A stretch of DNA of 64,000 nucleotides from Candidatus Woesearchaeota archaeon (GCA_016192905.1 JACPTG010000001.1:357005-421004), one strand, 5' to 3'. Counted from the first letter of the stretch, positions 1 to 33,250 are shown. Notes: generated by a model not told the origin, from the sequence alone. Program-made: numbers and translations.

Positions 1-3000
1 CACTCAAACACGTCAATAATCATCTTAACCAGCTTGCCCTCATAATAGACAGTCCTGGTTATCCTCGCAACAGCAGTGGAGTTGATCTTGATAGTTGCCT
101 TAATCCTGACAGGCTCCTTAGGCTTGCCCTCACAACACCTCACCTCATAATGCCTCTCCCCTGTCTCAGTGAAGTTATACGGCCTTGTAAAGTCCTTATG
201 GAAGCCATCACACGCGTCAATAGCAGCCCGGTCAAAGAACAGGCAGCCATTAGTGCCCTGGCACTCTGAATGGCACATCTCATCATTAGTATAAGAGCAA
301 TCCTCCTCGCAAAGGCTAGAGCCAAAGCCCAAGGCAAAGTTAACCATTGTAGGCGCAACAGTATCAAAGTCCTTAATCTGGATGCCCTTCAAGGTAGACG
401 GGCTGAAAGGAGCCTTGCTCGCAATCATATCATACAGGATAGTGCCCCTGCTGGCATTCACGCCATCAATCCTGTAAGTGCCATCAGCAGCAGTGAACGT
501 CCTGTTCCTTGAGCCAACAATCTTAACCTCAACTCCCCCGAGGGGATTGCCCCCTGCATCCGTCACCTTCCCGACAACCGAGCCGGTCGGAGTAACCCAC
601 AATGCTGGATGGGTATTGGCGTCACAGACTTCAAGGAATCCGTCGCCATTGGCGTCTGCATACACCCTATCCTTGTCAGGCCTGCTGATAACATCCTTCC
701 TCTGGACTCCATTAGCCGAAGCGTAAGTGTCAATGTCCTGATAGCACTTGCCGCTTAAAACGCAGCTCTTATCAGTCGTGCAGCAGGCAACGTCAGTCAA
801 GAGGTCGCCCATCCCAGACTTGTACTTCCTCACCTCATCCTTATCATCACCACAGCAGCCAGTTGACTGATAACCGGCATACTCGCCAGGCTGGGAGCCG
901 ACAGGCAGGCCCTGACTGTCAAGCCAGCCCTGGCCGCTGCCAATCCAAGTCTTGCCGCAAGTCGTGCACGGGTTATGGTTGGCTGCGGTTGCGTCATCTG
1001 CGTCATAAGTTTTCAGGACGCAATTCTCAGCAGCGCCAGCGCCATTGGAATTCGCAGCATAATACTCGCTATAAGTGCAGGAATCAACTCCAGTGCCGCA
1101 CGTTCCCGAGCAGCCCTCTGCGCTGGCAACATGAGAAACATCCACATTACACTGGCCAGTGCCGCACGAACCCTTATCACCATTAAAGCACACTCCTGTA
1201 GTTGAAGGCGAATCATCAGAGTCACCAGTGGCAACAGTGTCATAATCCCTACACTCCTTAGAAGAACTGGTGAAAGGCGAATCCTGGGCAACTGGATTAG
1301 GGTTGCAGGCGTACTCAGTAAGCGAATATTGGCTGGCGCACGCGTCTGCCTGCGAATAAGACTGAAGATTACAATAGCCGCCACCAGCCCCAGACAGGCA
1401 TCCCTGGGCATCAGTGCCAGAGACAGTGCCGCTCAGCTTAAAGACATCCGGACTTGCGCTGTCCGAGTCCAGACATGTCTGGCCATAAGTCAGGCAGTCA
1501 TAATCCTGGCTGATGAAAGGCACGTCCTGGGCATCAGCATTCGCAGGGCAGCCATACTCTGTAAGGGCGTTAACCGTGCACTTGTCCTGCTTGCCGAAGT
1601 CAAGCTGAGTGCATCGGCCCCCAGCGCAGCCAGTTGAATCCCTGCCTGTAGTGGTTCTCGGAGTGGTAACTCCTGCAATGCCATCAGGGTCACTGCACGT
1701 CTGGCCATAAGTCAGGCAATTTGCAGTCCCGTCCGGGCATGCTGCACCCTGCGCATAAGTCTCCTTCAAATTATTGCCAGTGCAAACATCATTAAGATTA
1801 TTGAACGCGCAGAAAGCTGAACCCGGAACTCCCTGACAGGCATAATAATCCTTGCAAAGCCCTGAAGTGAAAGGAGTGTAGCCACCATCAGAATCCTCAG
1901 ATGCCTTAGCCGTACAGTCCTCAGTCTGGGTGATTGTATAATCGCAGTACGGAGAGCCAGACGGAATACAAGCATAACTCCGGTACACCCTCACACCAGC
2001 ATTCGAACAATACCAACCAGTCAACAAATTACAGTCCTGAATCATACTGTCAGAAGCCGCATCATTACAATAACCGCCGCTACCGCCATTAGTGCACTGC
2101 CACTCATTCCTCATAATCTTACCCGCATTCCCGCCAGAACCACAATAATTATACTCAGAATTCTCACAATTATACGAATTGCTCACCCAAGGAATGCTAT
2201 CCTGATTAGAGCCGCAGCCATACTCAGTCAGACTGTTACCGCTACACCTGTCAGTAAACGCATAACTGCTGCCAATGCACCTGCTGCCACTGCAACTCGT
2301 CCCATCATAGCCAGAGACTGAGCCAGCAGAATTATAATTAGAAGGCGAACCATCCAAATCTGAACAGCTCTGGGCGTAAGTATTGCAGTTATAGTTCTTA
2401 CTTGGACAGGAAACTCCTGACGCATAAGTCTCTGCAAGATCAGTGTTGGATACGCAGTTATCATTATAATCCCTCAAATCACAATAAGCATTCGGGCCAG
2501 AGCCAGCACACTGGGTAAAGTCCCTGCAATAACCGCTGACGTCAGGCCTGTCACCCAAATCACTATCCTGACTGGCCAACTTGGGGCAGTCATCAGTCTG
2601 AGTAACTGTATAAGCGCAGGCAGGAGAGCCAGAAGCAGAACTGCAGGTATAATCCCTAAGCTCACGAGCGCCTGTAGGAGTGCAATACCATCCAGACTGC
2701 AACCCGCAATTCTGAACAAGAGAATCCTGCGCACCATCATTACAATAGCCGCCTTCTGCGCCAGAAGAGCAACGCCACTCATTCCTCATAATATTCCTGC
2801 CACTGCAATAAGTTGATTCCTGACTCTCACAATCACTAGTCTGAGACACATAAGGACTGTCCTGGCCGCTTGGATTACTCGGACATCCATATTCAGTCAC
2901 GAAATTGCCCGAAGGACCCCCACAGGAGTCACGAATTTCATAACCACTTGAAGAGCACTTACCCTGGCTACAGCCAGTACTATCAGAACCAGACACCTTC

Positions 3001-6000
3001 CCAGCAGAGTTAAAGACACTCCCACCATCAGAATCAACACAGGACTGGCCATAGGAATAACAGTCAGCCACAGTGCCAGAGCAATAAACACCATTCGCCA
3101 ACATCTCACCCAAATACCTGCCATCCATGCAATAGTCAGAAGAAGCCCACGCCACACAATCTGCACTGCCAGGGGTTCCTCCGCACCCATAATAATCATT
3201 ACATGAGCCATAAGCAAAGGGATAATTACCGCTATCAGAATCCGTACTGGCCTTACCCAGACAATCCTCAGGCTGGGAAGCCGCATAGGTACAGGCAGCA
3301 GAGCCGGAAACAACACCACAAGTATACTGCCTATACTCCTTCGTATTGCCATTGCAATACCAACCAGACTTAGCACCACAATCATCAACCAGAGAATCAG
3401 CAGCACCATCATTACACGCGCCGGAAGAACACTGCCACTCGTTCCTCATAATCTTACCTGCATTGGCGCCTGAGCCGCAGTAAGTTGTCTCTGAGTTTTT
3501 GCAGTTTATATCCGTGCTGGTGCATGAAGAGATGCCGCTTGAATAATATTCCCTCAGGGAAGTTGATGTGAGGCACGTATCAGTGACTGTGCTGCTTATG
3601 CATGCAGTCCCCTGACATGCCCCGGTTGTAGTTCCGGAAGTATAGGCTGTACATGAGCTAGCTGTACTTGGAACATTTCCACCATCAGGCTCGACAGTTC
3701 TTTGCACGCACCAGGAGCAGCCTTGCCGAGTTACTGGATTTTGGGCTTGTCGGCAGGACAGTTCGAAACTACACGCAGAGCACCCATTATCAGTTGTTGA
3801 GGTATAGTAGCAACCACCTACGCAATTTGAAATGGCCGAGCAGTCGGGATAGCAGCAGCTTGTTTGCGAGGGGGGCTTGGTATCCTTTTCATCGCATGTC
3901 CCAGCAGCCCCGCAGGATGCCTCGCAAAGGCCCCCGCCATAACTCGGAGTCGGAGAAGTCTGCTTTTTGTTGGCATCACAGGTAACACACACACCCGAAG
4001 AAGTATCGCAAGTGCCTGAGCAGCACTGGCTATTCTGAGTGCAAGCTTGGCCTGCTGCTGCCAGTGCAGTGTGGGTAACGCCACTCCCTGTGCACGCATC
4101 AACAGTGCAGGCATTCCCATCATCAATGGATGCAGTCTGGTAATTGCAGTTCACAGTGGATGTGCAGCTTGGATTTGGATTATAGTAACACACTCCGCTG
4201 ACTGTCTTGGGAGAAGGACAGCTGCCGGTGATGTCAAGATAATTGCAGGAAGTAGTGCAGCAGGAGTTGCCAGAGGCCGCGCCTGCAGCCTTCTCATCAC
4301 ACCTGATATCAGCGCCACAGGAAGAGTCGCAGAGGTTGCCGCCATAAACGTTTGACGGGCTCGTCTGCACGCTGTTGGAATTGCACCTGATACAGACGCC
4401 ATTGGTGTTATCCCTCAAGCCAGAGCAGCAGTCCGAAGCCTGCGTCGAACTTAACCCATCCAAAATCTTAGTTACATGCGAAACGCCAGAAGAAGAGCAG
4501 ACATCCACAGTGCATGAATTGCCATCATCCACAACAGCGCTGCCCGGCGCAGTATACGAATAGGCAGAGCAAGACTCGCCATAATAGCAGCGGCCACTCA
4601 CAACAACCCCATTATCATTGCAAGCAGCAGTGCCAGAACTGCATGAGGCTGCATTTGAAGCACCGCAAGTCCAGCCGCTATTAAGGTTGCAGGAAACCAC
4701 AAGGCTCCCATAATAGCAGTTGCCATTGGCAACCAGCCCCTGCTCCCTGGAGCACGCATTCATATCAAGAGTGCTGGAAGTGCAGTCACTCTTACAACAC
4801 TGGCTGCCAGTGGAATACCCGCCGCTCTGCTCATCACACGCAGCACTTGCCCCGCAGGAAGCCTCACATTGATAACCGCCGAAAGCATTACCGGGATTAC
4901 CCTGCCTACTGCCGCTGCACTGAATACAGACGCCATTGCCAATAGGGAAGCGCAGGCCGCCTCCCTTGGTCATATATTCCTGACCTGGCCGCACGTCAGC
5001 ATTAGACTTAAAGTCTCCGATATGATACCTTACCCTCACATTCTCTGATTGGAAGGTCGCGTAGTCATTAACCTTGATATAGTCTACATTCAGCTCCCTG
5101 CCATTGTCTTCATCCGGATTTGTATAAACAACCGCAACCTCTGAGCCATCCCTTATCAACGGTTCAGAACCCAAAAGCCACTGAGTGGTGTAATCTGCAT
5201 AGCTGCCTGTAGTTGTAAACGTATTCCGCCTTACCCAAGACTGAGAGGAAGACTCCCTAATCCACACCTCAACAACAGGCATAACACTGCCAGAATAACC
5301 AGGATAGTAAGAGCCCTTAGCCCTCACAATAACAGACTTGTAAAAGCCACCCAAGGCGTTTGAGTCGCAGATATTGCCCGAGCAACAGTCAGCACTGGAT
5401 GAGCAAACATTTGAATTTGGGCTGCATGCTTCAGTTACCTTAGGAGTGTCAACATTTACTGCGCTGGTTGCATCACAGTCGTCATTTGTAGAATCAAGCT
5501 TTACCAAATACTGTCCCCTAGCATTAGGCACATTGCCAGTGAAAAGATCAGTATAGCTGGTGACTGGGCTGGGCGATGAATAGCTCACTGCTGTCGCGCT
5601 ATCAGAGCTGCGGACTAAGGTTGACTGCAGATTTCCATTCTTGTCAACTATCCGGACGCTGAAGCTGCTTGCAGCGCAGCCACATGAGACCAGAGTGGAA
5701 GCTGAAATATACTCGCCTGGATTAAAGTTGTTCTTATTCGGGGTAATGGACTTGCTGTTGGCGCACACATTAATTGTAGTATACCTGTCACATCCATTAT
5801 CAGGCGAGTCAAGCATCACATTATAAGTTCCTGCTGCCGAGGGAGCAGTGCCGTAGAAGGTATCGCCATAAGCAGTTGAATCAGAAGAGGCGTGAACACC
5901 GCTGCCCATGCTGCTTACAAGAGTGCCATCCTGCTTCAGAATCTTCACCGTAAAACTGTTCCTAGTGCAAGCGCAGTTCGTACTCGTAGTTGCTGTAACC

Positions 6001-6593
6001 GACTCGCCTGGGAAATAAGTGGCCTTACTGGTGCTGAGAGAGCTTGACTTGCCAACCACTGTAAAAGACTGGGGAAGCTGCTTGAAACGCCACTCAAGGC
6101 ACTGGTCAGCTTCGCCCCTAACATTCCAGTCAAACTTAACGTAGTAAGTGCCAGTTGATGACGGCGCGCTGAAAGACCGCGAACATGAGCCGCCAACCGC
6201 ATAGGCGCACCTGTTGGCTCCCCAGCCGTCCTGCCAGTTGCCACAATATATAGAAGGCTCCTTACCAAAGCCGACAGCAGTCACAAAAGTGCCGCCGGAA
6301 TTGTATACGCCCACTTTACCCTTGTTTGAATCATCATTAGGAAGTCGAAGAGTGGTCACAGTGTCTGACAACAGCCCATTCCCGCAGTCAACCTTTCCAA
6401 CATTATTGTAAGTCAGGGTGACAGAGTCGCTAGGGCAGAGGTTGTTGACCGGCGAAATTGAAATATCAGGCTCAGGATATGTAAGCTCGTGGCCTGCCCA
6501 CGGCTCAGAGTAAAGCGTCTCATCCTGACTGATGACAAAGGTGGAAAGAAGGAAAACACCCAACAAAGCAATGGCCAGCCACCTCAACCTCAT
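1..6593 (-). CDS. Giant Cys-rich secreted protein, N-terminal >2190 aa (C-terminus beyond window start)
   Basis: All minus-strand ORFs reported in 1-6590 share one frame and are short. The other minus frame has no reported ORF because it runs off the window. Its ATG at 6593-6591 overlaps the TGA of the upstream gene (ATGA). N-terminal signal peptide MRLRWLAIALLGVFLLSTFVISQ. Codon-scale Cys richness (many gca/aca on plus strand). Tandem ~670-bp repeats (2101/2771/3441). A beta-sandwich CarboxypepD_reg-like segment (..GSVVGKVTDAGGNPLGGVEVKIVG..) near 430-560. Confidence 0.6.
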   Translation of the reverse strand, partial: MRLRWLAIALLGVFLLSTFVISQDETLYSEPWAGHELTYPEPDISISPVNNLCPSDSVTLTYNNVGKVDCGNGLLSDTVTTLRLPNDDSNKGKVGVYNSGGTFVTAVGFGKEPSIYCGNWQDGWGANRCAYAVGGSCSRSFSAPSSTGTYYVKFDWNVRGEADQCLEWRFKQLPQSFTVVGKSSSLSTSKATYFPGESVTATTSTNCACTRNSFTVKILKQDGTLVSSMGSGVHASSDSTAYGDTFYGTAPSAAGTYNVMLDSPDNGCDRYTTINVCANSKSITPNKNNFNPGEYISASTLVSCGCAASSFSVRIVDKNGNLQSTLVRSSDSATAVSYSSPSPVTSYTDLFTGNVPNARGQYLVKLDSTNDDCDATSAVNVDTPKVTEACSPNSNVCSSSADCCSGNICDSNALGGFYKSVIVRAKGSYYPGYSGSVMPVVEVWIRESSSQSWVRRNTFTTTGSYADYTTQWLLGSEPLIRDGSEVAVVYTNPDEDNGRELNVDYIKVNDYATFQSENVRVRYHIGDFKSNADVRPGQEYMTKGGGLRFPIGNGVCIQCSGSRQGNPGNAFGGYQCEASCGASAACDEQSGGYSTGSQCCKSDCTSSTLDMNACSREQGLVANGNCYYGSLVVSCNLNSGWTCGASNAASCSSGTAACNDNGVVVSGRCYYGESCSAYSYTAPGSAVVDDGNSCTVDVCSSSGVSHVTKILDGLSSTQASDCCSGLRDNTNGVCIRCNSNSVQTSPSNVYGGNLCDSSCGADIRCDEKAAGAASGNSCCTTSCNYLDITGSCPSPKTVSGVCYYNPNPSCTSTVNCNYQTASIDDGNACTVDACTGSGVTHTALAAAGQACTQNSQCCSGTCDTSSGVCVTCDANKKQTSPTPSYGGGLCEASCGAAGTCDEKDTKPPSQTSCCYPDCSAISNCVGGCYYTSTTDNGCSACSFELSCRQAQNPVTRQGCSWCVQRTVEPDGGNVPSTASSCTAYTSGTTTGACQGTACISSTVTDTCLTSTSLREYYSSGISSCTSTDINCKNSETTYCGSGANAGKIMRNEWQCSSGACNDGAADSLVDDCGAKSGWYCNGNTKEYRQYTCGVVSGSAACTYAASQPEDCLGKASTDSDSGNYPFAYGSCNDYYGCGGTPGSADCVAWASSDYCMDGRYLGEMLANGVYCSGTVADCYSYGQSCVDSDGGSVFNSAGKVSGSDSTGCSQGKCSSSGYEIRDSCGGPSGNFVTEYGCPSNPSGQDSPYVSQTSDCESQESTYCSGRNIMRNEWRCSSGAEGGYCNDGAQDSLVQNCGLQSGWYCTPTGARELRDYTCSSASGSPACAYTVTQTDDCPKLASQDSDLGDRPDVSGYCRDFTQCAGSGPNAYCDLRDYNDNCVSNTDLAETYASGVSCPSKNYNCNTYAQSCSDLDGSPSNYNSAGSVSGYDGTSCSGSRCIGSSYAFTDRCSGNSLTEYGCGSNQDSIPWVSNSYNCENSEYNYCGSGGNAGKIMRNEWQCTNGGSGGYCNDAASDSMIQDCNLLTGWYCSNAGVRVYRSYACIPSGSPYCDYTITQTEDCTAKASEDSDGGYTPFTSGLCKDYYACQGVPGSAFCAFNNLNDVCTGNNLKETYAQGAACPDGTANCLTYGQTCSDPDGIAGVTTPRTTTGRDSTGCAGGRCTQLDFGKQDKCTVNALTEYGCPANADAQDVPFISQDYDCLTYGQTCLDSDSASPDVFKLSGTVSGTDAQGCLSGAGGGYCNLQSYSQADACASQYSLTEYACNPNPVAQDSPFTSSSKECRDYDTVATGDSDDSPSTTGVCFNGDKGSCGTGQCNVDVSHVASAEGCSGTCGTGVDSCTYSEYYAANSNGAGAAENCVLKTYDADDATAANHNPCTTCGKTWIGSGQGWLDSQGLPVGSQPGEYAGYQSTGCCGDDKDEVRKYKSGMGDLLTDVACCTTDKSCVLSGKCYQDIDTYASANGVQRKDVISRPDKDRVYADANGDGFLEVCDANTHPALWVTPTGSVVGKVTDAGGNPLGGVEVKIVGSRNRTFTAADGTYRIDGVNASRGTILYDMIASKAPFSPSTLKGIQIKDFDTVAPTMVNFALGFGSSLCEEDCSYTNDEMCHSECQGTNGCLFFDRAAIDACDGFHKDFTRPYNFTETGERHYEVRCCEGKPKEPVRIKATIKINSTAVARITRTVYYEGKLVKMIIDVFE

Positions 6594-8197
6594 CTGACCC
6601 TCCGCTTCCTTGGCTGAACCTTAGGCAGCGCAGGCGGCCTCCTGGAAAGCAACCTGGCACCTATGAAGGCGGTAAGCGCAGCTACCAGCAAGCCAGCCAG
6701 GTACGGCCAGAGGCTTAGAATGTTAAAGCCTGGCTTCCTGAACTGGAATGGCGTTGCATTAATGACCTTTGAAACCTTTCCGCCGGGGTACTCTGCAGTA
6801 AAATTATAGGAGCCTGCCTCAAGGCGAAGCTCCTGAACAGTGCTCAGGTCAATGGGACCGATGTTTGAAGGGCCATTAGTGTAGAAGGCCGTGGCAGGAA
6901 CCCCATAAACCAGCTTCCCATTCTCATCTGAAATCTTCAACAGCACGTAAACAGGCGTGCCCTCAACAAACGAATCCTTTGACTCCTTGAACGACTGGTC
7001 TGAAGAGAAGACAAGCGAAGCCGAAGCGATTAAAGGAGCGAAACTGGAGGATTTTGAGGAAATCCTGTAGGAATCCACGACCTTACCTTCAGAGACTGCC
7101 TCGGCAACCACTGAAAACTCATCTACAGTCTCCTTTGCCTTGAAAGTGAGGACTTCCTCAGCCATATTGGCACCTGCATTAGCCCCTGTCAAATCGATGG
7201 GCAGCCTGCCAAAGGAGAAATCCTTCCAAAACTCTGCCATTGCCTTGCCATCCTTGTCAGAGAACCTAAGGCTCAAACGGCCTGAAATGTTGGACACCGA
7301 ATCCGCAGGCCCAACAAAAACCGCCTTCACATTTGCTGTCTCCCCTGCCTTATAAGCGGGCTTATCGGCAGAAAGCTCAACAAGCCTTGCGCCAGAACCG
7401 GCAACAACAAGCCTGTTCCTATAAAGGGAAAGAAGCTCTGCCCCATCATAGACCCCAATCCTGACAGCATAAGCAGTCGGCTTTGACGGCGCGGGAAAGT
7501 CAACTGGAAACTCATTGAGACCGGGGGAAAAGCTTAAAGGCTTGGAATAGGAGTAAACTGGCTTATCACCCAGAGTATCATCCCACTCATACACATCATA
7601 ATCCAGTATTAACTGCCGGGCTGAAGCGCTGGAAACAACAACCCTTGACTTCACAGTTGAGCCGGGCTGGACAGTCGGGCCAAGCTGGCTGGAGTAGCAG
7701 CCTTCCACACCTGAAAGCACGCCACAGACAACAGTAGAATTCCGGCTGATGGAGACCTGAGGAGCTGAAGCAGAACTGTTAACCCTGAAATACACAACAG
7801 CAGGGCTGATGTAAGACCAAGGCCAGCCGACAACGGCACTGCGGCCATCCTTCAAATAAATCTCAGCCCTGTACACTCCCGCCGGGGCAAAGCCAGGAAT
7901 TGACAGATTCACCCTATAATCACCAGCCTCACCCACCCTCAAATGAAGGCCGCGGTAAACCTCCTCAGAAAACTGATTCGCACGCGGCTCAAGGCTCAGA
8001 AAGGCAACCACAAGATAGCCGTCAAGCATCGCATCAGGGCCGCTGTTGGTGACTTTGACGTTAAGATAGCCGCTGGTTCCGGCACTGTAAACCGGCTCAT
8101 TGGTGTAAGCCTGGATTGAGGCAGCGGCTGAAACAAGAGATGCCGAAACTAAAGCTAAAGCAAGGATTAGCAGTATGACTACCCCTCTTTTTTTCAT
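6590..8197 (-). CDS. Secreted surface protein with C-terminal TM anchor and basic tail
   Basis: 535 aa. Signal peptide MKKRGVVILLILALALVSASLVSAAAS (tool start at 8206 is TTG). C-terminal hydrophobic helix plus RRPPALPKVQPRKRRVR. Stop overlaps start of downstream Cys-rich gene. Confidence 0.7.
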   Translation of the reverse strand: MKKRGVVILLILALALVSASLVSAAASIQAYTNEPVYSAGTSGYLNVKVTNSGPDAMLDGYLVVAFLSLEPRANQFSEEVYRGLHLRVGEAGDYRVNLSIPGFAPAGVYRAEIYLKDGRSAVVGWPWSYISPAVVYFRVNSSASAPQVSISRNSTVVCGVLSGVEGCYSSQLGPTVQPGSTVKSRVVVSSASARQLILDYDVYEWDDTLGDKPVYSYSKPLSFSPGLNEFPVDFPAPSKPTAYAVRIGVYDGAELLSLYRNRLVVAGSGARLVELSADKPAYKAGETANVKAVFVGPADSVSNISGRLSLRFSDKDGKAMAEFWKDFSFGRLPIDLTGANAGANMAEEVLTFKAKETVDEFSVVAEAVSEGKVVDSYRISSKSSSFAPLIASASLVFSSDQSFKESKDSFVEGTPVYVLLKISDENGKLVYGVPATAFYTNGPSNIGPIDLSTVQELRLEAGSYNFTAEYPGGKVSKVINATPFQFRKPGFNILSLWPYLAGLLVAALTAFIGARLLSRRPPALPKVQPRKRRVR

Positions 8198-8361: not shown

Positions 8362-8382
8362 AGGTGCACAAATATTATATAG
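8362..8382 (+). promoter_or_regulatory. GTGCAC palindrome + TATA-like box (recurring promoter module)
   Basis: gtgcacaaatattatata. Same module at 10044, 10010, 11648 and 12994. Confidence 0.4.
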
Positions 8383-8667
8383 CCTCAGGCACACAGGCTC
8401 ACATATGTTCAGAAGGCCTGCAGTGCTGCCAAAAAATCCGAACGATTGGAAAGCCTTTCTGCCTGGACTAAACACTTTTGTTGAGCCCAAGCAAGGTTCT
8501 CCATTGCATTCTGCCCAGACTGCCGGCTTAAACCTGCCAACACACGCAAAGAACACCTTAAACAGCACGGCAATAGAATGTCCACTTCAAAGTAGTTAAA
8601 AGAATAAACTTTATAAATTATAGCCCTTACAAAGTAGTAAAATGCCAAGACGCAAGGGTACGGCGAC
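8362..8667. repeat. 306-bp direct repeat copy 1 (promoter/5' flank of M23-domain paralog 1)
   Basis: Near-identical (about 97% by eye) to 10042-10347, exactly 1680 bp downstream. Contains GTGCAC + AAATATTATATA TATA-like element. Confidence 0.85.
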
Positions 8668-9947
8668 TCGCAGCAGGAATAGCCGCCATACTATTCCAAA
8701 TAAACCCCTTCGCCCAGCCAGCACAGGCAAACCCAAACTACAGGCCACCCGCGGTAAGCCGACAGGCAGATACCTACCAAAGGCCAAGCGAAGAAAAGGA
8801 GCAGAACCCAAACAACAGATTCATAACAGCCAGCAACACACCATTAGTTTACCTACAGCAGGCAATAAGTCCGACGGCGACCGTAACGGGCACATCTGCA
8901 TTTACACCAACCACGCCATTCTTAACATGGTTCATGCCTAAGGGAAAAGAATGGGGAATAAGCAACCAATATGATTATTGTTGGGATCCGCCAGGCAAAA
9001 AGTGCGATTATAAAGACAGAGAGGAAACTATAGCCAGAGATAACCATACTGGAATAGACGTTATTTCATTCGAGAACACTATGGTTGTTGCTGCGGCCCC
9101 TGGAAAGGTTATGCCCATTCAAAGAGACCCTTCAAATGATGAGTATGGTGTTCTTATTGACCATGCTAATGGCTATGGTAGCTCTTATACTCACATGGAT
9201 AATCCGGCTGATATGCCCAATCCCATAAAAGTTGGACAGAAAATAGAAAGAGGTCAGATTATTGGAAAGTTTAAGCGGTATGGACTAGGCGGGGGTCATG
9301 TGCATTTCGCAGTTATGTTTATAAATGATGGAGAGTTAGGGTACGGGACGATGGGCCCATATAGGAGAATCAGTCAACCTGTAAGCCAATACAACCAAAA
9401 TTTGTGGCTTGATGATCGGGGGCGTGAAAACTGCCCGCATTACGCTGGGGAAACCGATGCGCAGGATTGTATAGGAGACTTTTGGCCGCCGTACACGGCA
9501 ACTGCTACCCCTAGTAGCACAAGCAGCCCGACGCAGGTTGCGACATACACACCAACAACACCGCCCACAGCAACACCCAACTTCACAGCAACACCCTCTC
9601 AAACAGGCACGCCAACGGCAACAAGCAGCCCAACAGCAGTTGCAACCTTCACACCAACAGGAACACCAAGCCCAACACCAAACTTCACACCAACACCTAC
9701 ACCAACAAACACGCCAACCTCAACACCCGCACAGGCAACACCCGAACCAGTAGTATGCGGAGCAGGCGGAAGAGTTGTACAGAAAGCAACAGGCCAACAG
9801 ACATGCCAATATTTCGCAAATGTCCCGGTAGTATTAAACTATACCTCAGGAAACCAGAACATAGCCGTAACTGGCGCTACCACAGCAGCATACACATCAG
9901 CAGCAGCAGACTACAGGATAAGCGCAACACGTCCGGCACTACGCTGA
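8667..9947 (+). CDS. M23 (LytM/lysostaphin-type) metallopeptidase-domain protein with Thr/Pro-rich linker and C-terminal Cys domain; start uncertain (first ATG at 8934)
   Basis: HTGID (HxxxD) and GGGHVHF (HxH) motifs. TPT-repeat linker. C-terminal VCGAGGRVVQKATGQQTCQYF domain shared with paralog. In-frame homology to paralog N-terminus extends upstream to ~8667 without ATG/GTG/TTG. Confidence 0.65.
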   Translation, partial: LAAGIAAILFQINPFAQPAQANPNYRPPAVSRQADTYQRPSEEKEQNPNNRFITASNTPLVYLQQAISPTATVTGTSAFTPTTPFLTWFMPKGKEWGISNQYDYCWDPPGKKCDYKDREETIARDNHTGIDVISFENTMVVAAAPGKVMPIQRDPSNDEYGVLIDHANGYGSSYTHMDNPADMPNPIKVGQKIERGQIIGKFKRYGLGGGHVHFAVMFINDGELGYGTMGPYRRISQPVSQYNQNLWLDDRGRENCPHYAGETDAQDCIGDFWPPYTATATPSSTSSPTQVATYTPTTPPTATPNFTATPSQTGTPTATSSPTAVATFTPTGTPSPTPNFTPTPTPTNTPTSTPAQATPEPVVCGAGGRVVQKATGQQTCQYFANVPVVLNYTSGNQNIAVTGATTAAYTSAAADYRISATRPALR

Positions 9948-10041
9948 GAAGGCCTCACACAAACATGTCAGTTGTAATGCCCAGATTTAACCAATAGTAT
10001 GCATTTCTAGTGCACAATTTAAGGATAAAATGTGCATTTAC

Positions 10042-10347
10042 AGGTGCACAAATATTATATAGCCTCAGGCACACAGGCTCACATATGTTCAGAAGGCCTG
10101 CAGCGCTGCCAAAAAATCCGAACGATTGGAAGACGTTTCAGTCCGGACTAAACACTTTTGTTGAGCCAAAGCAAGGTTCTCCATTGCATTCTGCTCCTGC
10201 TGCCAGCTTAAACCTGCCAACACACGCAAAGAACACCTTAAACAGCACGGCAATAGAATGTCCACTTCAAAGTAGTTAAAAGAATAAACTTTATAAATTA
10301 TAGCCCTTACAAAGTAGTAAAATGCCAAGACGCAAGGGTACGGCGAT
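10042..10347. repeat. 306-bp direct repeat copy 2 (5' flank of M23-domain paralog 2)
   Basis: See copy 1. Followed by ~60-nt segment absent from copy 1 that contains the ATG (10407) of paralog 2. Confidence 0.85.
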
Positions 10348-10406
10348 TGGAAGAAAGAGTAGAGGAAGCTTCCGGAACAGCCCGGCACAACCACAAACCA
10401 CACTGG

Positions 10407-11579
10407 ATGAGAGTAGCAGGATACACCCTGCCACTCGCAGCAGGAATAGCCGCACTACTAATCCAAACAAGCCCAGCCGCATCCCAACCAGCACAACCCA
10501 ACCCAAACTACCAGGTCTACTCGCAGCAGGTAGCAACTCCCACCCCCACAGCAACCAGACCGCCAACAAGCCCCATAGGATTCGCATTCTGGCCACTAAG
10601 CAAAAAAGTAAAGCTACCAGACGGAAAAGAAGGAGAACTGACATTCCGAATCACAAGCTATTTAGACAATGACCCGAGCAATGGAATCAGGAGATGGGAT
10701 GGGGCATATGACCCTGACCCGTTGTCTGTAAAGATATACACGTTAGACGGACACAGAGGGACAGACATACAGCCATTAAACGAAACCGGAACTACTGTTT
10801 ACGTGCTGGCATTGACTGATGGGAAAATTATCATAACAGAAGAAGCGACAGGAAATAATGGGTTAGTTATAGAGAACGATAAATGGACAATCCAATATTA
10901 TCATGTTTATAACATCCTAGTAGCCGATGGTGCAGCTGTGACTACCGGGCAAAAAATTGCTGAAATAATAATGGGCTCGGGGAAAGCCTATTTGCATTTA
11001 GGGGCTATTGAAGGAGGAGTTTTTAAACAGAGAGACTACTGGCGTGATGTCACAGGCCAGTCAATCAACACCCAAAGCCTGTGGATAGATGACAACTGCC
11101 CAAGATTCAAAGAAGACATAGACGCAGGAGTATTCTACTGCCTCCAAAGAACATATCCGGAATCATTAGCAACGCCATCAGCAACACCAACCAGCACAAG
11201 CAGCCCCACAGCAACCTACACGCCAACCGGAACACCAACCCCAACACCCAACTTCACAGCCACCCCCTCACCAACAGGCACGCCAACAGCAACCCCACAG
11301 CCAACAGCAACCACCACACCCACCAGCACCCCAACACCTCCACCAACAAACACACCAACAGGAACACCAACACCTCCACCAACAAACACCGCAACAGCAA
11401 CCCCAACACCCGCCCAAGGAACACCCGTAGCAATAGTATGCGAACAAAGCAAAGGCGGAAGAGTTGTGCAAAATGCGGCCACAGGCCAACAGACCTGCGT
11501 ATATACCCAAGGTGTGCCAGTTTTGTTGAACAGCTACACAACAGGAAACCACCAGAACATAGCCATAACATTACGCTGA
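10407..11579 (+). CDS. M23-like peptidase-domain paralog with degenerate HxH motif, N-terminal signal anchor, Thr/Pro linker, C-terminal Cys domain
   Basis: [20 protein letters not shown] hydrophobic N-terminus. HRGTD (HxxxD) present but HxH replaced by YLH (KAYLHLG). Same TP linker and C-terminal [23 protein letters not shown] domain as paralog 1. Confidence 0.7.
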
Positions 11580-11686
11580 CCTCAGTTAAATCTCACACAA
11601 ACACGTCAGTTGCAATGACAATGCTTAAATAATAGTATGCGTTTCCAGTGCACAATTTAAGCATAAAATGTGCATTTGCAATTAAC

Positions 11687-12973
11687 ATGGAAAAAAGCAG
11701 AGTGAAGAAGGCAGTCATAGACCAAAAAGAGGAGATAGAGCTGCTGTCTTCAAGAGTAAGGCTCATTGAAAGAAGCTGCTTTGAAAAATACAAAGCCTAC
11801 GCAGCATCAACGCAGATTAAAGTGATAATGGGGGTGAGAAGAAGCGGCAAATCAATTCTCGCCTACCAGCTGCTGAAAGACAAGCGGTTTGCATACATAA
11901 ATCTTGATGATGAAAAACTTGCAAATATTTCTGCAGATGACTTAAATGACGTTCTTGAAGCATGTTATGAAGTGTATGGGGATTTCAAGCATTTACTGCT
12001 TGATGAGATACAGAATATTCCCGGCTGGGAATTGTTTGTCAATAGGCTGCAAAGACAGGGATTTAACATCATTGTTACAGGAAGCAACGCCAATCTTCTG
12101 GGCAGAGAATTATCGACACACCTTACAGGAAGGCACATTGCCCTGGAACTCTTCCCATTTTCCTTCAAGGAATTCGCAATATACCATGGGACTGAGCTGA
12201 AGGCGCCTGATTTACTGTCCACAAAAGAGAGGGGGCTTATGAAAAAAAAGCTTGAAGAATACATGTTTACAGGAGGGTTTCCCGAAGTTGTCAGGGAGCC
12301 TGAAAGCAAAAAAGCATATCTCCAATCCCTGTATTCCGATATACTGAACAAAGACATAATAGTTCGCCATAAAATAAGGTTTTCAAAAACTTTCAAAGAG
12401 ATAGCGAACAGCCTCATGTCCAATGCCGCATCGCATGTAAGCTTTAACAAGCTAAAAAACAGCTTTAACCTAAAAAGCGCGCACACTGCCTCAAACTACA
12501 TGTCCTTCCTGGAAGAATCCTTTTTGTTCTTTTTAGTCCCCCGTTTTTCATTCAAGGCCAAGGAAAGGGCGATTGCAAGCAGAAAAATATATTCCATTGA
12601 CACCGGGATTATGGATACCCTGAGCGTAAATTTCTCGCCGAATATTGGAAAGATATACGAGAACATGGTTTTCCTGGAACTGGCCAGGAGAAGCTCCATG
12701 GGGCAATCTGAAATATACTATTGGCAGGACGCATACCAGAATGAAGTTGATTTTGTGGTGAAAGAAGGCAGGGAAATAAAGGAGCTCATCCAGGTATGCT
12801 ATGATGCGGGCAATTATGACACCAAAAAAAGGGAAGTGACTGCGCTGCTTAAATCAGCAAAGGAGCTAAAGTGCGGAAAATTGACTGTGATAACCAACGA
12901 TTACGAGGCTGAGGAAGCAGCAGATGGCGGAAAGGTCAAATTCGTGCCATTATGGAAATGGCTTCTGGAATGA
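11687..12973 (+). CDS. AAA family ATPase (AAA_14 + DUF4143-type architecture)
   Basis: Walker A GVRRSGKS, Walker B LLLDEIQ, C-terminal DUF4143-like region. AT-rich relative to neighbours. Leaderless: TATA-like element ~25 nt upstream of ATG at 11687 (tool start 11648 is GTG inside promoter). Confidence 0.75.
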   Translation: MEKSRVKKAVIDQKEEIELLSSRVRLIERSCFEKYKAYAASTQIKVIMGVRRSGKSILAYQLLKDKRFAYINLDDEKLANISADDLNDVLEACYEVYGDFKHLLLDEIQNIPGWELFVNRLQRQGFNIIVTGSNANLLGRELSTHLTGRHIALELFPFSFKEFAIYHGTELKAPDLLSTKERGLMKKKLEEYMFTGGFPEVVREPESKKAYLQSLYSDILNKDIIVRHKIRFSKTFKEIANSLMSNAASHVSFNKLKNSFNLKSAHTASNYMSFLEESFLFFLVPRFSFKAKERAIASRKIYSIDTGIMDTLSVNFSPNIGKIYENMVFLELARRSSMGQSEIYYWQDAYQNEVDFVVKEGREIKELIQVCYDAGNYDTKKREVTALLKSAKELKCGKLTVITNDYEAEEAADGGKVKFVPLWKWLLE

Positions 12974-12993
12974 CTGCAATTTCAAACGGTGAT

Positions 12994-13012
12994 GTGCACA
13001 AAAAATATAATA
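12994..13012 (+). promoter_or_regulatory. GTGCAC + A/T-rich TATA-like box upstream of TP-rich gene
   Basis: gtgcacaaaaaatataata ~22 nt upstream of GTG start at 13034. Confidence 0.35.
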
Positions 13013-13033
13013 GGCCATTGAAAGCTATACAGC

Positions 13034-14302
13034 GTGGCGCTTGATTACATAGTAAGGCGTGCAGGAAGGATAGCTGCAATAGTAGGAATAGCGGCTGCTG
13101 TTGGCTACTGCCAGATTGCCTCGCCAACACAAATTCCATCGCCAACATACACCAAGCCCGCCTTCTCCAACGACCTCAGCAGCAGACTTTACTTGCCTGC
13201 TGTAATGAACAACCAGGCGCCTGAAAAACGGTTGGACTACAAGTGGTACCTTTACGTAATACTCAACGGGGACATGTCCATCAAACCGACGCACACTCCA
13301 TCAGCAACAGCCACCTCTGGAACCACTCCCACTATAACAGCCACAGCAATTACTGCTCCCACCCTGACTGCCACCCCGGGACTAACGCCAACCGCCACCT
13401 CTGCCGCAGCAACAATGATAGCAGCAACACTCACAGCCACTGCAGCGCTAACACCAGCAGGCTACCTAACTTCAACACCCACGCAATACGCCATAATCAT
13501 ACCTACTGCATCATCAACATCATCACCCCTGGCATTACTGACCGGAACACCAACAAACACGGCAATAATCTACTTCACACAAACACCAACAGGAACAAGC
13601 ACAGGAACACCAACCTGGACACCCACAACCATAAACACACCAACAGGAACAGCAATAATATGGACACCAACAGCAACCGCCACCCCAATATGGACAGGAA
13701 CACCAACCTGGACACCCACAACCATAAACACACCAACAGGAACAGCAATCATACTGACACCAACCAACACACCCATACCTGCACCAACAGCAACAAGCAC
13801 AGCAACAGAAACTGCTACCTCGCCACCAACCCTAACAGTAACACCACAGCCAACCTACACGCCTCTGCCTACCGCGACCAACACAGCAACCTACACGCCA
13901 GTACCAACAGCAACATGGACCCCTACGAACACGGCAACACAAACATGGACGCCCACAGAGACAGCCACCTACACTCCCATCCCCACACCAACTGGAACAC
14001 CAACAAACACTACAACAGCAACCCCAACATGGACACCAACACCAACCAGCACAAGCAGCCCAACAGGAACACCAACAGGCACGCCTGTACCCACAGCCAG
14101 CTTTACCCCTGTACCGCCAACATCAACCAGCACAGCCAGCGCAACTCCCACCAGTACCCTAACACCAACACCCACAACAACAAGCAGCCCAACCCCAACA
14201 GAAATATTCATTCTGCCGCCGAGCTCGATATTCACAAGTTACCTGAACGCTGCGCTGAGGATAAACGATATCACCTGGCTGATTTATGATGTCAGATGGT
14301 GA
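13034..14302 (+). CDS. Thr/Pro-rich low-complexity (mucin-like) membrane-anchored protein
   Basis: GTG start, N-terminal hydrophobic segment IAAIVGIAAAVGY, then ~350 aa of TPT/TAT repeats using same codon pattern as M23 linkers. Internal 93-bp direct repeat (13607-13655 / 13700-13748). Confidence 0.5.
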   Translation: MALDYIVRRAGRIAAIVGIAAAVGYCQIASPTQIPSPTYTKPAFSNDLSSRLYLPAVMNNQAPEKRLDYKWYLYVILNGDMSIKPTHTPSATATSGTTPTITATAITAPTLTATPGLTPTATSAAATMIAATLTATAALTPAGYLTSTPTQYAIIIPTASSTSSPLALLTGTPTNTAIIYFTQTPTGTSTGTPTWTPTTINTPTGTAIIWTPTATATPIWTGTPTWTPTTINTPTGTAIILTPTNTPIPAPTATSTATETATSPPTLTVTPQPTYTPLPTATNTATYTPVPTATWTPTNTATQTWTPTETATYTPIPTPTGTPTNTTTATPTWTPTPTSTSSPTGTPTGTPVPTASFTPVPPTSTSTASATPTSTLTPTPTTTSSPTPTEIFILPPSSIFTSYLNAALRINDITWLIYDVRW

Positions 14303-14344: not shown

Positions 14345-14447
14345 GGGGCTGTGGTGTAACTTGGCTATCACACAAGGTTTGGGACACAAATTGGGAACAA
14401 TTGTGTCAGAAGACCTTGTGATCGGGGTTCAAATCCTCGCAGCCCCA
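14345..14447 (+). tRNA. tRNA-Pro (anticodon UGG) with ~30-nt intron in anticodon loop
   Basis: Acceptor GGGGCTG/CAGCCCC. T-arm CGGGG-TTCAAAT-CCTCG. Anticodon stem CAAGG..CCTTG with loop TTTGGG[intron containing GACACAA..TTGTGTC helix]A. Discriminator A. Confidence 0.6.
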
Positions 14448-30306: not shown

Positions 30307-30542
30307 ATTAGTTCCCCCCTCTCTACAGTTTTGATTACAATCGCATGGCCGAGGTCTTCACCCAAACAGATTATGGAACCATGCTTGCCCTTTTTGACAA
30401 ATTTCAGTCCATTCTTCCCGAATCGAGTTACTTTTCCTGTCCTCAAAACATCAAGTACCTGATCAGGATAGGCTATCTCCCTTTCCCTCGCCCTTTTAAC
30501 CGCATGAACGGTAATCAGTACCGGCCTGCCTTGGAAATCCAC
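30303..30542 (-). CDS. DUF4258-like small protein (putative toxin)
   Basis: 79 aa. ITVHAVKRAREREI.. pattern. Operonic with Zn-ribbon/AbrB gene. Confidence 0.4.
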   Translation of the reverse strand: MDFQGRPVLITVHAVKRAREREIAYPDQVLDVLRTGKVTRFGKNGLKFVKKGKHGSIICLGEDLGHAIVIKTVERGELI

Positions 30543-30594
30543 ATATCTCTGTAGATACTTAGATATACGAGTATAAAAATGTTTTTCGTATTTG

Positions 30595-31386
30595 TTACGA
30601 TATCGGCAACCTTAGAATATCCTTCAGCTCGTCAAAAGATGCCACAATGTGGTCAGCACCCCTACCGCCATAACGCCCCTTCCTGTCCATTAGAACACCC
30701 GTGAACCCGAACCTTCTCGCATCCGCAACCACCCTTGGCGAATCATCCACCATTATACAGTTTTCCTTCGGAACGCCTGAAACCCTAAGGCACTCCTGCC
30801 AGAAGCTGTCACCAGGCTTCCTGAAAGGGTCGCCTATGATAACCCTGGCTTCAGGAACGAAATCAAGCAAGCCTACAGCCCTTGTCCTTTCCATGCGATT
30901 TTTCCGCGCGTATTCCGAATCGTAAGAAAATTTTCCATTCCTCACAACAAGCCTGCTGTCGCTGCCAACAGCGATAAAACAGCCGGGAGATGACTTTACG
31001 AAACGCCGCGCGTCAGGATAAAAACTGGCATTTGCGACCATCGCATTCCAATAAGCATCCATTGCCTCAGCAATCTGGGCGTCAGACACCTGAAGCCTGT
31101 GCTTATCTGACAAATACCTTACATAAAGCTCCCTGCTGTAAATGACATTCGGCTTCTCGATGCCATCAGGGCAGGCCACAGGGTATGAATTCAATTTAGC
31201 GAGGAACTCCCTGCTTTCCGACGTCTCCCTGTCCTGATGATACGCAACCGCAAGAGAGAACAATTTCCTGAACTCGGCAGCCGCGGCCTCAGGCCAGAAA
31301 GCCCTGAGATAGGCGTATACAGCCTCGTTGGCCGCATCAGAATTAAAGGTCATCAGCGTATCGTCAACGTCAAGGAAAAAAGGCAT
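30595..31386 (-). CDS. HAD-superfamily hydrolase
   Basis: Motif I FLDVDDTL, C-terminal ..IMVDDSPRVV.. motif. Confidence 0.7.
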   Translation of the reverse strand: MPFFLDVDDTLMTFNSDAANEAVYAYLRAFWPEAAAAEFRKLFSLAVAYHQDRETSESREFLAKLNSYPVACPDGIEKPNVIYSRELYVRYLSDKHRLQVSDAQIAEAMDAYWNAMVANASFYPDARRFVKSSPGCFIAVGSDSRLVVRNGKFSYDSEYARKNRMERTRAVGLLDFVPEARVIIGDPFRKPGDSFWQECLRVSGVPKENCIMVDDSPRVVADARRFGFTGVLMDRKGRYGGRGADHIVASFDELKDILRLPIS

Positions 31387-31501
31387 GCGCCGGGGGGCGC
31401 CTTAATAGCTATAAAAAAGTTGCCAATATTACATAGTTTGCCCAACAGTTGGAACCTGCTGCCAGAAAATTCTTAAAGCCACCGATGACGCACAGGAACA
31501 A

Positions 31502-32599
31502 ATGAACATTATTTCAGAAGGCAAAGCCAGGATTTATGCCGAAAGCGGAAGGATAAGCAGAAAAATGGAAGCCTTCTACAACCCTGCCATGAAGCTCAAC
31601 AGGGACCTGTCAGTGCAACTGCTAAATGCGGTGGGCAGGAGGAAGATGCAGATAGCAGACCCGCTTGCCGGGACAGGGGTAAGATGCATAAGATTTGGAC
31701 TGGAGCTTGAAAAAGGATTGGCGGAGAGGATTGCAATAAACGACATATCAAGAACAGCCATTGCCTCTGTAAGGAGAAACCTCAAGCTGAACAGGATAAG
31801 CAGCAGGCTGGCCAGCGTAAGCAATAAGGATGCAAACATCTTCCTGCTTGAAAGCAAAGGCTTTGACTACATTGACATAGACCCGTTCGGAAGCCCTGCG
31901 CCATTCCTTGACTCTGCAACGCAGCGGCTTGCAAGGGGCGGGATAATCGCAGTTACAGCCACAGACACCGCAGCCCTTGCGGGAACCTCGCCCGGAGCCT
32001 GCATGCGAAAATACTGGGCAAGGCCACTGCGAAACCAGTCAATGCACGAAACAGGCCTCAGGATACTGATAAGAAGGGTGCAGCTTGCGGGAATGCAGCA
32101 TGAAAAGGCCCTTACACCAATACTTTCCTACCACGACCAGCACTACCAAAGGACGGTCCTAAGCTGCAGGAAAGGAAGGATACCTGCTGCAGCGATATAC
32201 AGGCAGCATGGATTCATAACAAGCTGCCTGAAATGCCTGCATGCAGAAGCAACCGCGCTGCCAAAGGGGAACTGCAGCGAATGCGGGTCAAAGGCTGAGA
32301 TTGCAGGGCCTTTATGGCTTGGGCAGACCAGCGACGCCAGGCTATGCCTAAGGATGTCAAAACACGGCCACAGGGAACTGCTCACAGCAATAGCAGCCGA
32401 AAGCAAAGTAAAAACGCCCTGGATTTACAACCTGAACTCCCTGTGCCGCAAATCCAGGATTGGAAAGCCGCCAAGAATAGAAGCGGTAATTGACAGGCTG
32501 CGGCAGGCCGGGCATAAAGCAGCGAGAACCCACATGGACTGGGAAGCGATAAGGACTGAAGCAACTGTGAAGGAAATAGTTGAAGCAATTAAGCATTGA
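31502..32599 (+). CDS. trm1: tRNA (guanine26-N2)-dimethyltransferase Trm1
   Basis: DPFGSP motif, zinc-finger CLKCLH..C..C insert, 365 aa. Confidence 0.85.
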   Translation: MNIISEGKARIYAESGRISRKMEAFYNPAMKLNRDLSVQLLNAVGRRKMQIADPLAGTGVRCIRFGLELEKGLAERIAINDISRTAIASVRRNLKLNRISSRLASVSNKDANIFLLESKGFDYIDIDPFGSPAPFLDSATQRLARGGIIAVTATDTAALAGTSPGACMRKYWARPLRNQSMHETGLRILIRRVQLAGMQHEKALTPILSYHDQHYQRTVLSCRKGRIPAAAIYRQHGFITSCLKCLHAEATALPKGNCSECGSKAEIAGPLWLGQTSDARLCLRMSKHGHRELLTAIAAESKVKTPWIYNLNSLCRKSRIGKPPRIEAVIDRLRQAGHKAARTHMDWEAIRTEATVKEIVEAIKH

Positions 32600-32716
32600 T
32601 GGAACTTTTGGCTGAATAACTAAAATTGGATTGTAGCAGCCTGTTCCTGCTTTGTTTCAGCTGCCCCTTTCAGGAGGCTTGTAACGTGTACGGCCGCTTC
32701 GTTCACTACAACTGCA

Positions 32717-33175
32717 ATGTCAGCTCCTTATAAAAAACAAGCTATAAAAAACAATCAACCTCAACGACAAGAATTAAATACGGGCTGTTCCTGCCTGGCT
32801 TCCATGGGATGGGACGAGTTGCAAGCGGTGGGGCGCATAATTTACGCAATCAAGCTTAATTATATCATTGGCGACGGACACGCCAGTGGAGGGGAGCGGC
32901 TTATTCCTGACCCGACTGTGAGAATTGCGGTTCAGGCTGCCGGCGTAATGATTGATACCCTCCTGGAACAGGCTCCGCAGCCTGACAATCTTTGGAGCAG
33001 GGAAAAGGACATAGCCAAGTCCATTGCTAGTCTTGGCCCGGACTATTACAATCTCCATGCATTCTTTGGTGAGGATCCGTGCAACTACAGCCGAGTGGCT
33101 GAAGGGCTGCCTGCCGGGATCAGAGAAGTCGTTTTAAGAGGATTGGAGTACAGGCCAGGGCACGCGGGACGATAA
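32717..33175 (+). CDS. Hypothetical protein
   Basis: ORF only. Start uncertain. Confidence 0.35.
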   Translation: MSAPYKKQAIKNNQPQRQELNTGCSCLASMGWDELQAVGRIIYAIKLNYIIGDGHASGGERLIPDPTVRIAVQAAGVMIDTLLEQAPQPDNLWSREKDIAKSIASLGPDYYNLHAFFGEDPCNYSRVAEGLPAGIREVVLRGLEYRPGHAGR

Positions 33176-33250
33176 AGAACAGGCCGGCGACGCAAAACAA
33201 AGGGCAAAGATTTATATATGATTTCTGCCGGAAAAGGCTCTGGAAACGAG

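Follow-up and report, generated by a model that had tools for sequence, protein, structure and literature searches.

Tandem M23 peptidase genes with anciently diverged cores and probably exchanged ends in a Woesearchaeota archaeon

The stretch of DNA analysed here, 64,000 nucleotides (nt) long and called the window below (GCA_016192905.1, JACPTG010000001.1:357005-421004), belongs to a chromosomal contig of 623,706 bp and carries two adjacent genes, A and B, for zinc metallopeptidases of the M23 (LytM/lysostaphin) type. Both products are listed in NCBI under Candidatus Woesearchaeota archaeon, which belongs to the DPANN archaea. Our analysis indicates that A and B are probably old tandem paralogues whose end modules were exchanged later by segmental gene conversion or unequal recombination. 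The catalytic cores would have diverged long ago; signal peptide, linker and C-terminal domain would then have passed between the genes (synonymous divergence, dS, about 0.4-0.7), the 3' flank would have come next (15% divergent), and the 5' module would have been exchanged most recently (4% divergent, last 141 nt identical). Exchange would have taken place in at least three layers. Directly observed are the repeat, its tiers of divergence, the domains, the catalytic motifs and the relations between reading frames.

Repeated flanks and tiers of divergence

The following elements flank the two genes:

8362-8666 (+): 5' module, copy 1, 305 nt, with GTGCACAA and a TATA-like box, a small open reading frame (ORF), a TTTATAAA box and ATG 8642
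10042-10346 (+): 5' module, copy 2, with the small ORF at 10085-10279, a TATA-like box at 10290-10297 and ATG 10322
8405-8599 and 10085-10279 (+): small ORF, 64 aa, MFRRPAVLPKNPNDW..., with its own TATA-like box and 23-nt spacer
8642-8644 (copy 1) and 10322 (copy 2) (+): promoter-proximal ATG, 24 nt behind TTTATAAA, in leaderless position
9954-10042 (+): 3' module, copy 1, a 3' untranslated region (UTR) with a promoter-like GTGCACAA-TATA element (10010-10032) directed into 5' module copy 2
11592-11680 (+): 3' module, copy 2, doubling as the promoter region of an AAA_14/DUF4143 ATPase gene

The layout is that of a simple head-to-tail duplication with a unit of about 1.64-1.68 kb, in which homology starts at 8362, the junction lies at 10041/10042 and the end is reached at about 11680. 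Each unit opens with GTGCACAA abutting a TATA-like box (8364-8382 in copy 1), followed after 23 nt by the ATG of the 64-codon ORF. Ten bases behind the stop of this small ORF comes the TTTATAAA box (8610-8617 in copy 1), and 24 nt further on ATG 8642 or 10322. Downstream of the promoters follow a signal-peptide-like stretch, a variable N-terminal region, the M23 domain, the motif LW.DD..NCP...C, a Thr/Pro linker, a two-Cys domain and the 3' segment.

The 5' repeat, for which an initial annotation had claimed 306 bp at about 97% identity, is real: its copies differ at 13 positions over 305 nt (95.7% identity, spacing 1680, BLAST E-value 1e-115). All 13 mismatches fall within the first 164 nt and the last 141 nt (8526-8666) are identical, a distribution with P = 3e-4. 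Equally real is the 3' repeat, put at about 80 bp with coordinates only a few bases off; it comprises 89 nt with 13 mismatches (85% identity, spacing 1638). The search for further cassette copies, proposed by the same annotation for the genome at large, found none within the 64-kb window, whether of flanks, cores or C-terminal domain. A 22-mer taken from the identical stretch of the 5' module had 0 matches in the genome, metagenome and viral collections, whose species-representative set does not include the source genome, and no orthologous tandem locus was found in them.

A sliding identity profile across the units is strongly non-uniform and changes in sharp steps, unlike the uniform divergence by which the initial annotation would have been refuted. 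Divergence of the 5' module amounts to 4.3% overall, 7.9% in the first 164 nt and 0% in the last 141 nt; that of the 3' module is 14.6%. Between the coding parts of A and B the proportion of differing synonymous sites (pS) is 0.33 in the signal-peptide region (dS 0.44) and 0.40 in the C-terminal domain (dS 0.57, ratio of nonsynonymous to synonymous divergence, dN/dS, 0.38). The linker has a dS of about 0.74, a rough value given its low complexity; the A linker is clearly closer to the B linker than to an unrelated Thr/Pro-rich ORF at 13034-14302. The N-terminal region and the M23 core retain no detectable nucleotide similarity, show 25.5-28% amino acid identity, and are saturated at synonymous sites of the core (pS 0.83).

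Compared with synonymous sites of the best-conserved coding parts, divergence is significantly lower in the 5' flank (Fisher test, P = 1.6e-10) as well as in the 3' flank (P = 0.004), and the flanks also differ from each other (P = 0.002). Non-coding flanks that are younger than the synonymous sites of adjacent genes do not fit one duplication followed by ordinary divergence, and therefore call for later copying between the units, more than once. The best reading of these data, in line with the initial annotation, is that gene conversion or recombination homogenised the flanks.

The edges of the similar tracts are informative as well. Copy B alone holds an in-frame segment of 87 nt (10347-10433, 29 codons), which shifts the spacing from 1680 to 1767, and the right edge of the conversion-like tract in the 5' module coincides exactly with this indel. 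Past it, the copies align again at 79-88% nucleotide identity through the signal-peptide region (8661-8729 on the A side, 10434-10524 in B). Divergence discordant with that of neighbouring synonymous sites and sharp boundaries, as expected of gene conversion, are both present. Concerted evolution, or segmental gene conversion, between tandem paralogues is a general phenomenon, and the pair described here resembles it in its mosaic identity, its sharp tract edges, its young flanks and the tract edge at the 87-nt heterology. There are only two sequences and no outgroup here, and the direction, number and timing of the exchanges are what we infer from these two.

Could old flanks instead have stayed near-identical with no exchange at all, simply because purifying selection acted on promoters, leader elements and a small gene? 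The 5' module does comprise two promoter-ATG units of canonical geometry plus a possible 64-codon gene, and the 3' module is the promoter of the next gene. However, 141 identical bases and 96% identity over 305 nt beside coding regions with a dS of about 0.44-0.57 would demand a constraint stronger than that on the catalytic motifs. The small ORF, moreover, shows a dN/dS of 0.39 between copies on 13 differences, which is not significant and indistinguishable from neutral. A structured RNA or riboswitch in the 305-nt segment was considered and rejected, as there is no Rfam match at E <= 10 and the fold is unremarkable against shuffles (z = +0.4 and +0.8); this also counts against selection as the sole cause, which we regard as very improbable.

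Catalytic cores, shared modules and function

The genes and their parts are as follows:

8934-9947 (+): gene A, 337 aa from its first in-frame start codon
8661-8729 (+): signal-peptide-like stretch of gene A, RRLAAGIAAILFQINPFAQPAQA, in frame
about 9042-9317 (+): M23 domain of gene A, with HTGID (His 9045-9047, Asp 9057-9059), His 9192-9194 and HVH 9297-9305
10407-11579 (+): gene B, 390 aa from ATG 10407 (in NCBI 410 aa from TTG 10347)
about 10749-11000 (+): M23 domain of gene B, with HRGTD (His 10752-10754, Asp 10764-10766), His 10902-10904 and YLH (Tyr 10989-10991, His 10995-10997)
9495-9743 (A) and 11166-11426 (B) (+): Thr/Pro-rich linkers, 83-87 residues
9744-9944 (+): two-Cys domain at the C-terminus of gene A, VCGAGGRVVQKATGQQTC...QNIAVT, followed by a 22-aa tail that B does not have
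11427-11576 (+): C-terminal two-Cys domain of gene B

Pfam Peptidase_M23 (PF01551) is matched by A at 59.3 bits and by B at 32.9 bits, both above the gathering cut-off of 28.7, and the C-terminal domains (about 45 aa, two Cys) share 70% amino acid identity; that both genes encode an M23 domain, a Thr/Pro linker and a C-terminal two-Cys domain had thus been recognised correctly. No other Pfam family was found at E <= 0.1. On this ground a pseudomurein endoisopeptidase (Pei, peptidase C71) was rejected, and the pseudomurein target considered in the initial annotation receives no support.

Active sites were derived from alignment of the two proteins with each other, with members of the subfamily described below, and with ShyA, TagE and zoocin A, their relatives by sequence in the PDB. 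HTGID of A and HRGTD of B align with HNGTD of ShyA. A holds all catalytic residues, namely HxxxD (HTGID), the middle His (in YTH) and HxH (HVH), just as LytM, lysostaphin, zoocin A and ShyA do. B has HxxxD (HRGTD) and keeps the middle His (YYH), but reads YLH for HxH, its first His being replaced by Tyr. In LytM and lysostaphin the His and Asp of HxxxD and the second His of HxH bind zinc, and the other two His are catalytic. Judged by these residues B should still bind zinc, while its activity is uncertain. With an incomplete catalytic set beside a complete paralogue, B and its subfamily recall the degenerate LytM (dLytM) regulators EnvC and NlpD. The dLytM proteins lack zinc ligands, whereas B keeps all three (H, D, H) together with the middle His, and no amidase partner is evident.

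Both cores are very isolated for M23 domains. A profile search of 1.84 billion representative proteins returned nothing nearer than about 85 bits to them, and a word-indexed search for close homologues returned only the window's own NCBI proteins. After re-scoring, the B core matched three proteins of 250-280 aa (P0005, P0017 and P0086) over the whole length of the core at 82-90 bits, the A core matched canonical M23 domains at 54-65 bits, and A and B matched each other at 33 bits. P0005 is annotated from Candidatus Woesearchaeota archaeon; its gene (L001 5788-6612, JACPBS010000020.1) is single-copy, lies in another, non-syntenic neighbourhood and has neither linker nor C-terminal domain. Protein-pattern scans for B-type relatives found one Woesearchaeota locus in genomes and none in metagenomes or viral contigs. 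The three proteins share the motifs FRVTSYFDEDPRN and YRDVTGKS...SLW.RDNCP. Where typical M23 enzymes have the first His of HxH, they show R, K or S (Tyr in B), and they have lost the middle His too, P0086 lacking even HxxxD. From these residues the B-type subfamily may consist of non-canonical or non-catalytic M23 proteins. The B core appears to belong to this small, Woesearchaeota-specific subfamily, and A looks like a catalytically complete, canonical M23 enzyme.

Since B is nearer to these Woesearchaeota proteins than to A, the split between the A and B cores predates that between B and its relatives. The diversification of the cores after duplication, offered by the initial annotation, is therefore not what the scores suggest: cores at 25.5% amino acid identity and 33 bits, one of them with closer relatives elsewhere (82-90 bits), point to old paralogues. 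And because P0005 has neither linker nor C-terminal domain, the presence of both in A and B is most simply explained by transfer between these two. The post-core motif LW.DD..NCP...C, an addition to the typical M23 domain, is conserved in A, B and the subfamily, and A also keeps a subfamily-like signal peptide. Instead of having been grafted in from elsewhere, A may accordingly be an old member of this archaeal clade that has changed little.

An alternative scenario would start from one recent tandem duplication of the whole unit, after which the core of one copy was swapped for an M23 domain from elsewhere, leaving the flanks as remnants. The abrupt change from high similarity to none at sharp boundaries would fit, and replacement of the catalytic domain on a constant binding module is documented among archaeal and bacterial peptidoglycan hydrolases (PMC12352652). 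The A core, furthermore, scores best against canonical, mostly bacterial-type M23 domains. Base composition has been considered in the same context: GC content at third codon positions (GC3) is 0.40 and 0.41 in the two cores (8934-9494 and 10578-11165), below the range of 0.47-0.66 (mean 0.565) of 30 other genes in the window, with overall codon-usage distance inside the normal spread. Low GC3 would agree with the whole cassette having originated in another genome, and hence with foreign sequence. As the two cores are alike in this respect, however, neither stands out as the newcomer. The parts supposedly retained from a single event are also of unequal age (4%, 15% and 33-40% at synonymous sites, all significantly different), and A keeps the subfamily-specific LW.DD..NCP...C and signal peptide. 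We consider a core swap unlikely, and old paralogy with later exchange of the ends is the reading followed below.

The shared C-terminal domain is an orphan. It has no Pfam family, a viral search gave no relatives, and a word-indexed profile search was empty, which is uninformative because even the proteins themselves were missed. Structure prediction was of no help either, with a predicted local distance difference test score (pLDDT) of 45 for this domain and a mean of 44, unusable, for an AlphaFold2 model of the B core from a two-sequence alignment. A recognised cell-wall-binding Pfam domain beside the catalytic domain, by which modular hydrolases have been defined (PMC12352652), is absent in A and B.

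Signal peptides were judged by inspection. A has hydrophobic and cleavage regions homologous to those of the B signal peptide, and we would expect both products to be exported by a Sec-type signal peptide. By analogy with characterised M23 enzymes they would cut peptide cross-links of bacterial peptidoglycan, be it for predation or for scavenging. The common C-terminal module, apparently of a disulfide type, may bind the target, and the Thr/Pro linker would act as an extended, possibly glycosylated spacer between the two. Both genes would be driven by the same promoter.

One further ORF has features in common with the pair. A 422-aa ORF at 13034-14302 (+) consists almost entirely of Thr/Pro-rich repeats and has no Pfam family. 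At its N-terminus (RRAGRIAAIVGIAAAVGY) it is similar to the signal peptides of the M23 genes, and nucleotide identity between its repeats and short stretches in the M23 linkers is 60-85%.

Promoters, start codons and reading frames

A strict pattern of TATA, 20-26 nt and a start codon was used to define leaderless geometry. It occurs at nine of the 36 ORF starts of the window and at none of 720 internal control windows, and is the signature of leaderless genes in this genome. The single-copy M23 relative in another Woesearchaeota genome shows it too. Within the two units it is present at ATG 8642 and 10322 and at the small-ORF starts 8405 and 10085, and absent at ATG 10407, TTG 10347 and ATG 8934. 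The small ORF has no Pfam family and no homologue and does not occur in the protein collection; it is a possible gene of putative coding status.

GTGCACAA occurs in five exact copies in the 64 kb (8364, 10010, 10044, 11648 and 12994), all on the (+) strand and within 4.6 kb. Every copy stands directly beside a TATA-like box, namely those of the small ORF (twice), the 3' module (twice) and the Thr/Pro-rich ORF. Only three of the copies are independent, and with one mismatch allowed the count does not exceed that in shuffles (6 vs 2.7 +/- 1.7). GTGCACAA could be a site resembling the B recognition element (BRE) or a regulator site.

The promoter-proximal ATG (8642 and 10322) is out of frame (+1) with the M23 frame in both copies, and the identical part of the 5' module extends 25 nt beyond it. 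Gene A has an open frame of 449 codons without a single stop from 8601 onwards. Between the stop at 8598-8600 and ATG 8934, which already lies past the signal peptide, this frame holds no ATG, GTG or TTG, so that the signal-peptide stretch of A has no in-frame start codon. In gene B the only in-frame ATG ahead of the signal peptide is 10407, inside the 87 nt that A lacks. In the present sequence B is the only one of the two with a usable start codon ahead of the signal peptide. In public annotation the 5' ends of both genes appear to be wrong: besides the TTG start chosen for B, NCBI gives A as only 288 aa from MVVAAAPGK, downstream of the zinc-binding HTGID.

Removal of any single base in 8645-8667 brings both genes into frame with zero stops, the 87-nt indel being a multiple of three. 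Gene A would then start MPRRK.RRLAAGIAAILFQINPFAQPAQA..., equal to MPRRK.RRLAAGIAAILFQ..., a textbook signal peptide. We read this as ATG 8642 and 10322 having been the native start codon, with a 1-nt frameshift in the first eight codons that both copies now share. The shift may have spread by conversion, in which case B would survive by means of ATG 10407 and A would be very recently disabled or non-exported. Alternatively, assembly or polishing may have made the consensus uniform over the perfect repeat of 141 nt; the giant ORFs of the window, intact over more than 21 kb, count against a generally indel-prone assembly. Gene A would thus be a copy that was disabled very recently, or one that depends on a putative 1-nt difference. 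The ORF that begins at ATG 8642 ends at TAA 8939-8941 and overlaps ATG 8934 (ATGCCTAA), an arrangement in which termination-reinitiation could yield a gene A product without signal peptide.

The metagenomic origin of the assembly invites the suspicion that two strain alleles of a hypervariable locus were joined head to tail, or that a repeat was mis-resolved. Similar arms around a divergent middle are indeed the look of a population bubble. Logan contigs built from short reads end within the Thr/Pro linkers, and among those recovered none crosses the junction at 10042 or the 5' end of A. Look-ups of exact products (both M23 genes with several starts, and the upstream 538/535-aa gene) and of ORFs and partial products from the junction region found no independent record. 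Against an artefact, each flank differs between its copies (at 13 positions in either case), only GTGCA is shared at the junction 10041/10042, far too short for a spurious k-mer join, and unique genes adjoin copy 1 on the left and copy 2 on the right. Independent Logan assemblies from other runs agree at 100% over 11418-13630 on the ATPase side and over 30502-33599 around Trm1, and the intact giant ORFs speak for high consensus quality. The organism is present in the Logan assemblies of runs SRR12113422, SRR12113385, SRR12113431, SRR12113429, SRR12113425 and SRR12113428, on which a literature search found nothing. To an artefact of assembly we give very little credence.

The start-less gene A also bears on a cassette system in which B is expressed, A is a translationally silent donor, and the conserved arms provide the homology for swapping catalytic heads. 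The variable core is indeed flanked by homology arms, A as sequenced combines a missing start codon with an intact 449-codon frame and a complete active site, and the most recent exchange tract stops exactly at its missing start region. But there are only two copies, A has the promoter of B and so is not transcriptionally silent by design, and no recombinase, reverse transcriptase or further cassettes occur in the window. A one-off disabling event would account for the same facts, and such a system seems to us very improbable. A fuller version, in which this DPANN archaeon uses such arms to move alternative peptidoglycan-hydrolase cores into one expressed, secreted, surface-targeted frame, with A as silent but intact donor and the out-of-frame ATG in on/off control, has a very small chance of being right. 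A diversity-generating retroelement was rejected: the window ORFs scanned contain no reverse transcriptase domain, and the 13 mismatches are of all base types without adenine bias.

Several points weigh against old paralogy with exchanged ends and against a functional pair. Conversion is deduced from two sequences only, with no orthologous locus found by which exchanges could be polarised or dated. Part of the conservation of the 5' module could come from selection on its promoters and possible small gene. The higher scores of A against canonical M23 domains may partly reflect retained catalytic motifs and not closer kinship. Export, target and activity of both products are predictions from sequence, and the C-terminal domain has neither recognisable relatives nor a recognisable fold. 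With one catalytic His missing in B and the start codon missing in A as sequenced, a working pair of enzymes is not assured.

Known systems and genomic neighbourhood

Secreted archaeal M23 hydrolases are known to kill bacteria, and one survey found M23 in four genomes of Nanoarchaeia (PMC12352652). Woesearchaeota have been proposed to degrade peptidoglycan and to lead a 'vampiristic' life (PMC9723730). To call such a pair notable in an archaeon, as the initial annotation did, is accordingly an overstatement. Catalytic domains have repeatedly been replaced on a common binding module, and a single genome may hold two hydrolases with closely related binding modules (PMC12352652).

The nearest parallel is formed by Woldo (M23) and Danwoldo (glucosaminidase) of Halogranum salarium (PMC12352652). 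There as here, archaeal proteins, secreted in that case and predicted to be so in ours, carry a catalytic domain of a peptidoglycan-cleaving type, two genes in one genome combine related non-catalytic modules with different catalytic parts, and evolution would proceed by replacement or exchange of modules. In contrast to that system, both catalytic parts are M23 domains here (of different subfamilies), the genes are adjacent, and exchange would reach promoters and UTRs. The shared module is an orphan two-Cys domain of about 45 aa instead of PG_binding_1, the signal is Sec-like instead of Tat, and the pair is known from its sequence alone.

Current views are not overturned by these findings, since archaeal peptidoglycan hydrolases, modular shuffling and peptidoglycan attack by Woesearchaeota have already been published (PMC12352652, PMC9723730). 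If our interpretation is correct, the locus is a clean, small example of a genome-reduced archaeon, probably dependent on bacteria, in which one promoter and one targeting module serve two different cell-wall-cutting enzymes through the exchange of gene ends and not of whole genes. Two very isolated lineages are added to M23, among them a subfamily specific to Woesearchaeota whose active site is altered, and the orphan two-Cys module at the C-terminus may represent a new domain for cell-wall binding. Details worth noting are the leaderless ATG that is out of frame in both copies, a gene A that is intact yet has no start codon, the active site with Tyr in place of His and the orphan module.

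Housekeeping genes of archaeal type surround the pair (aIF5B, Trm1, RtcA and a DRG-type GTPase), together with several giant surface proteins. The features concerned are:

11687 (+): ATG of the AAA_14/DUF4143 ATPase gene, the next gene downstream of unit B, whose promoter region is 3' module copy 2
3-6599 (-): giant ORF, at least 2199 aa, running off the window start
44115-49091 (-): giant ORF, 1658 aa
49121-53734 (-): giant ORF, 1537 aa
55864-61131 (-): giant ORF, 1755 aa

The giant ORFs contain Ig-like, cadherin-like, CarboxypepD_reg and InhA-MAM domains, and all four are probably large surface proteins as typical for DPANN archaea. The neighbourhood of the M23 pair is rich in extracellular proteins.

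Two minor observations concern other parts of the window. A tRNA match of 103 nt at 14345-14447 (+) scores 48.9 bits in Rfam and was missed by ARAGORN; it presumably represents an intron-containing archaeal tRNA. For an ORF of 163 aa at 34518-35009 (-), the match to the PHO4 phosphate-transporter profile is confined to the C-terminal part (200-350 of 350), and with only about 90 nt to the next gene this ORF is to be taken as a half-size or truncated transporter gene.

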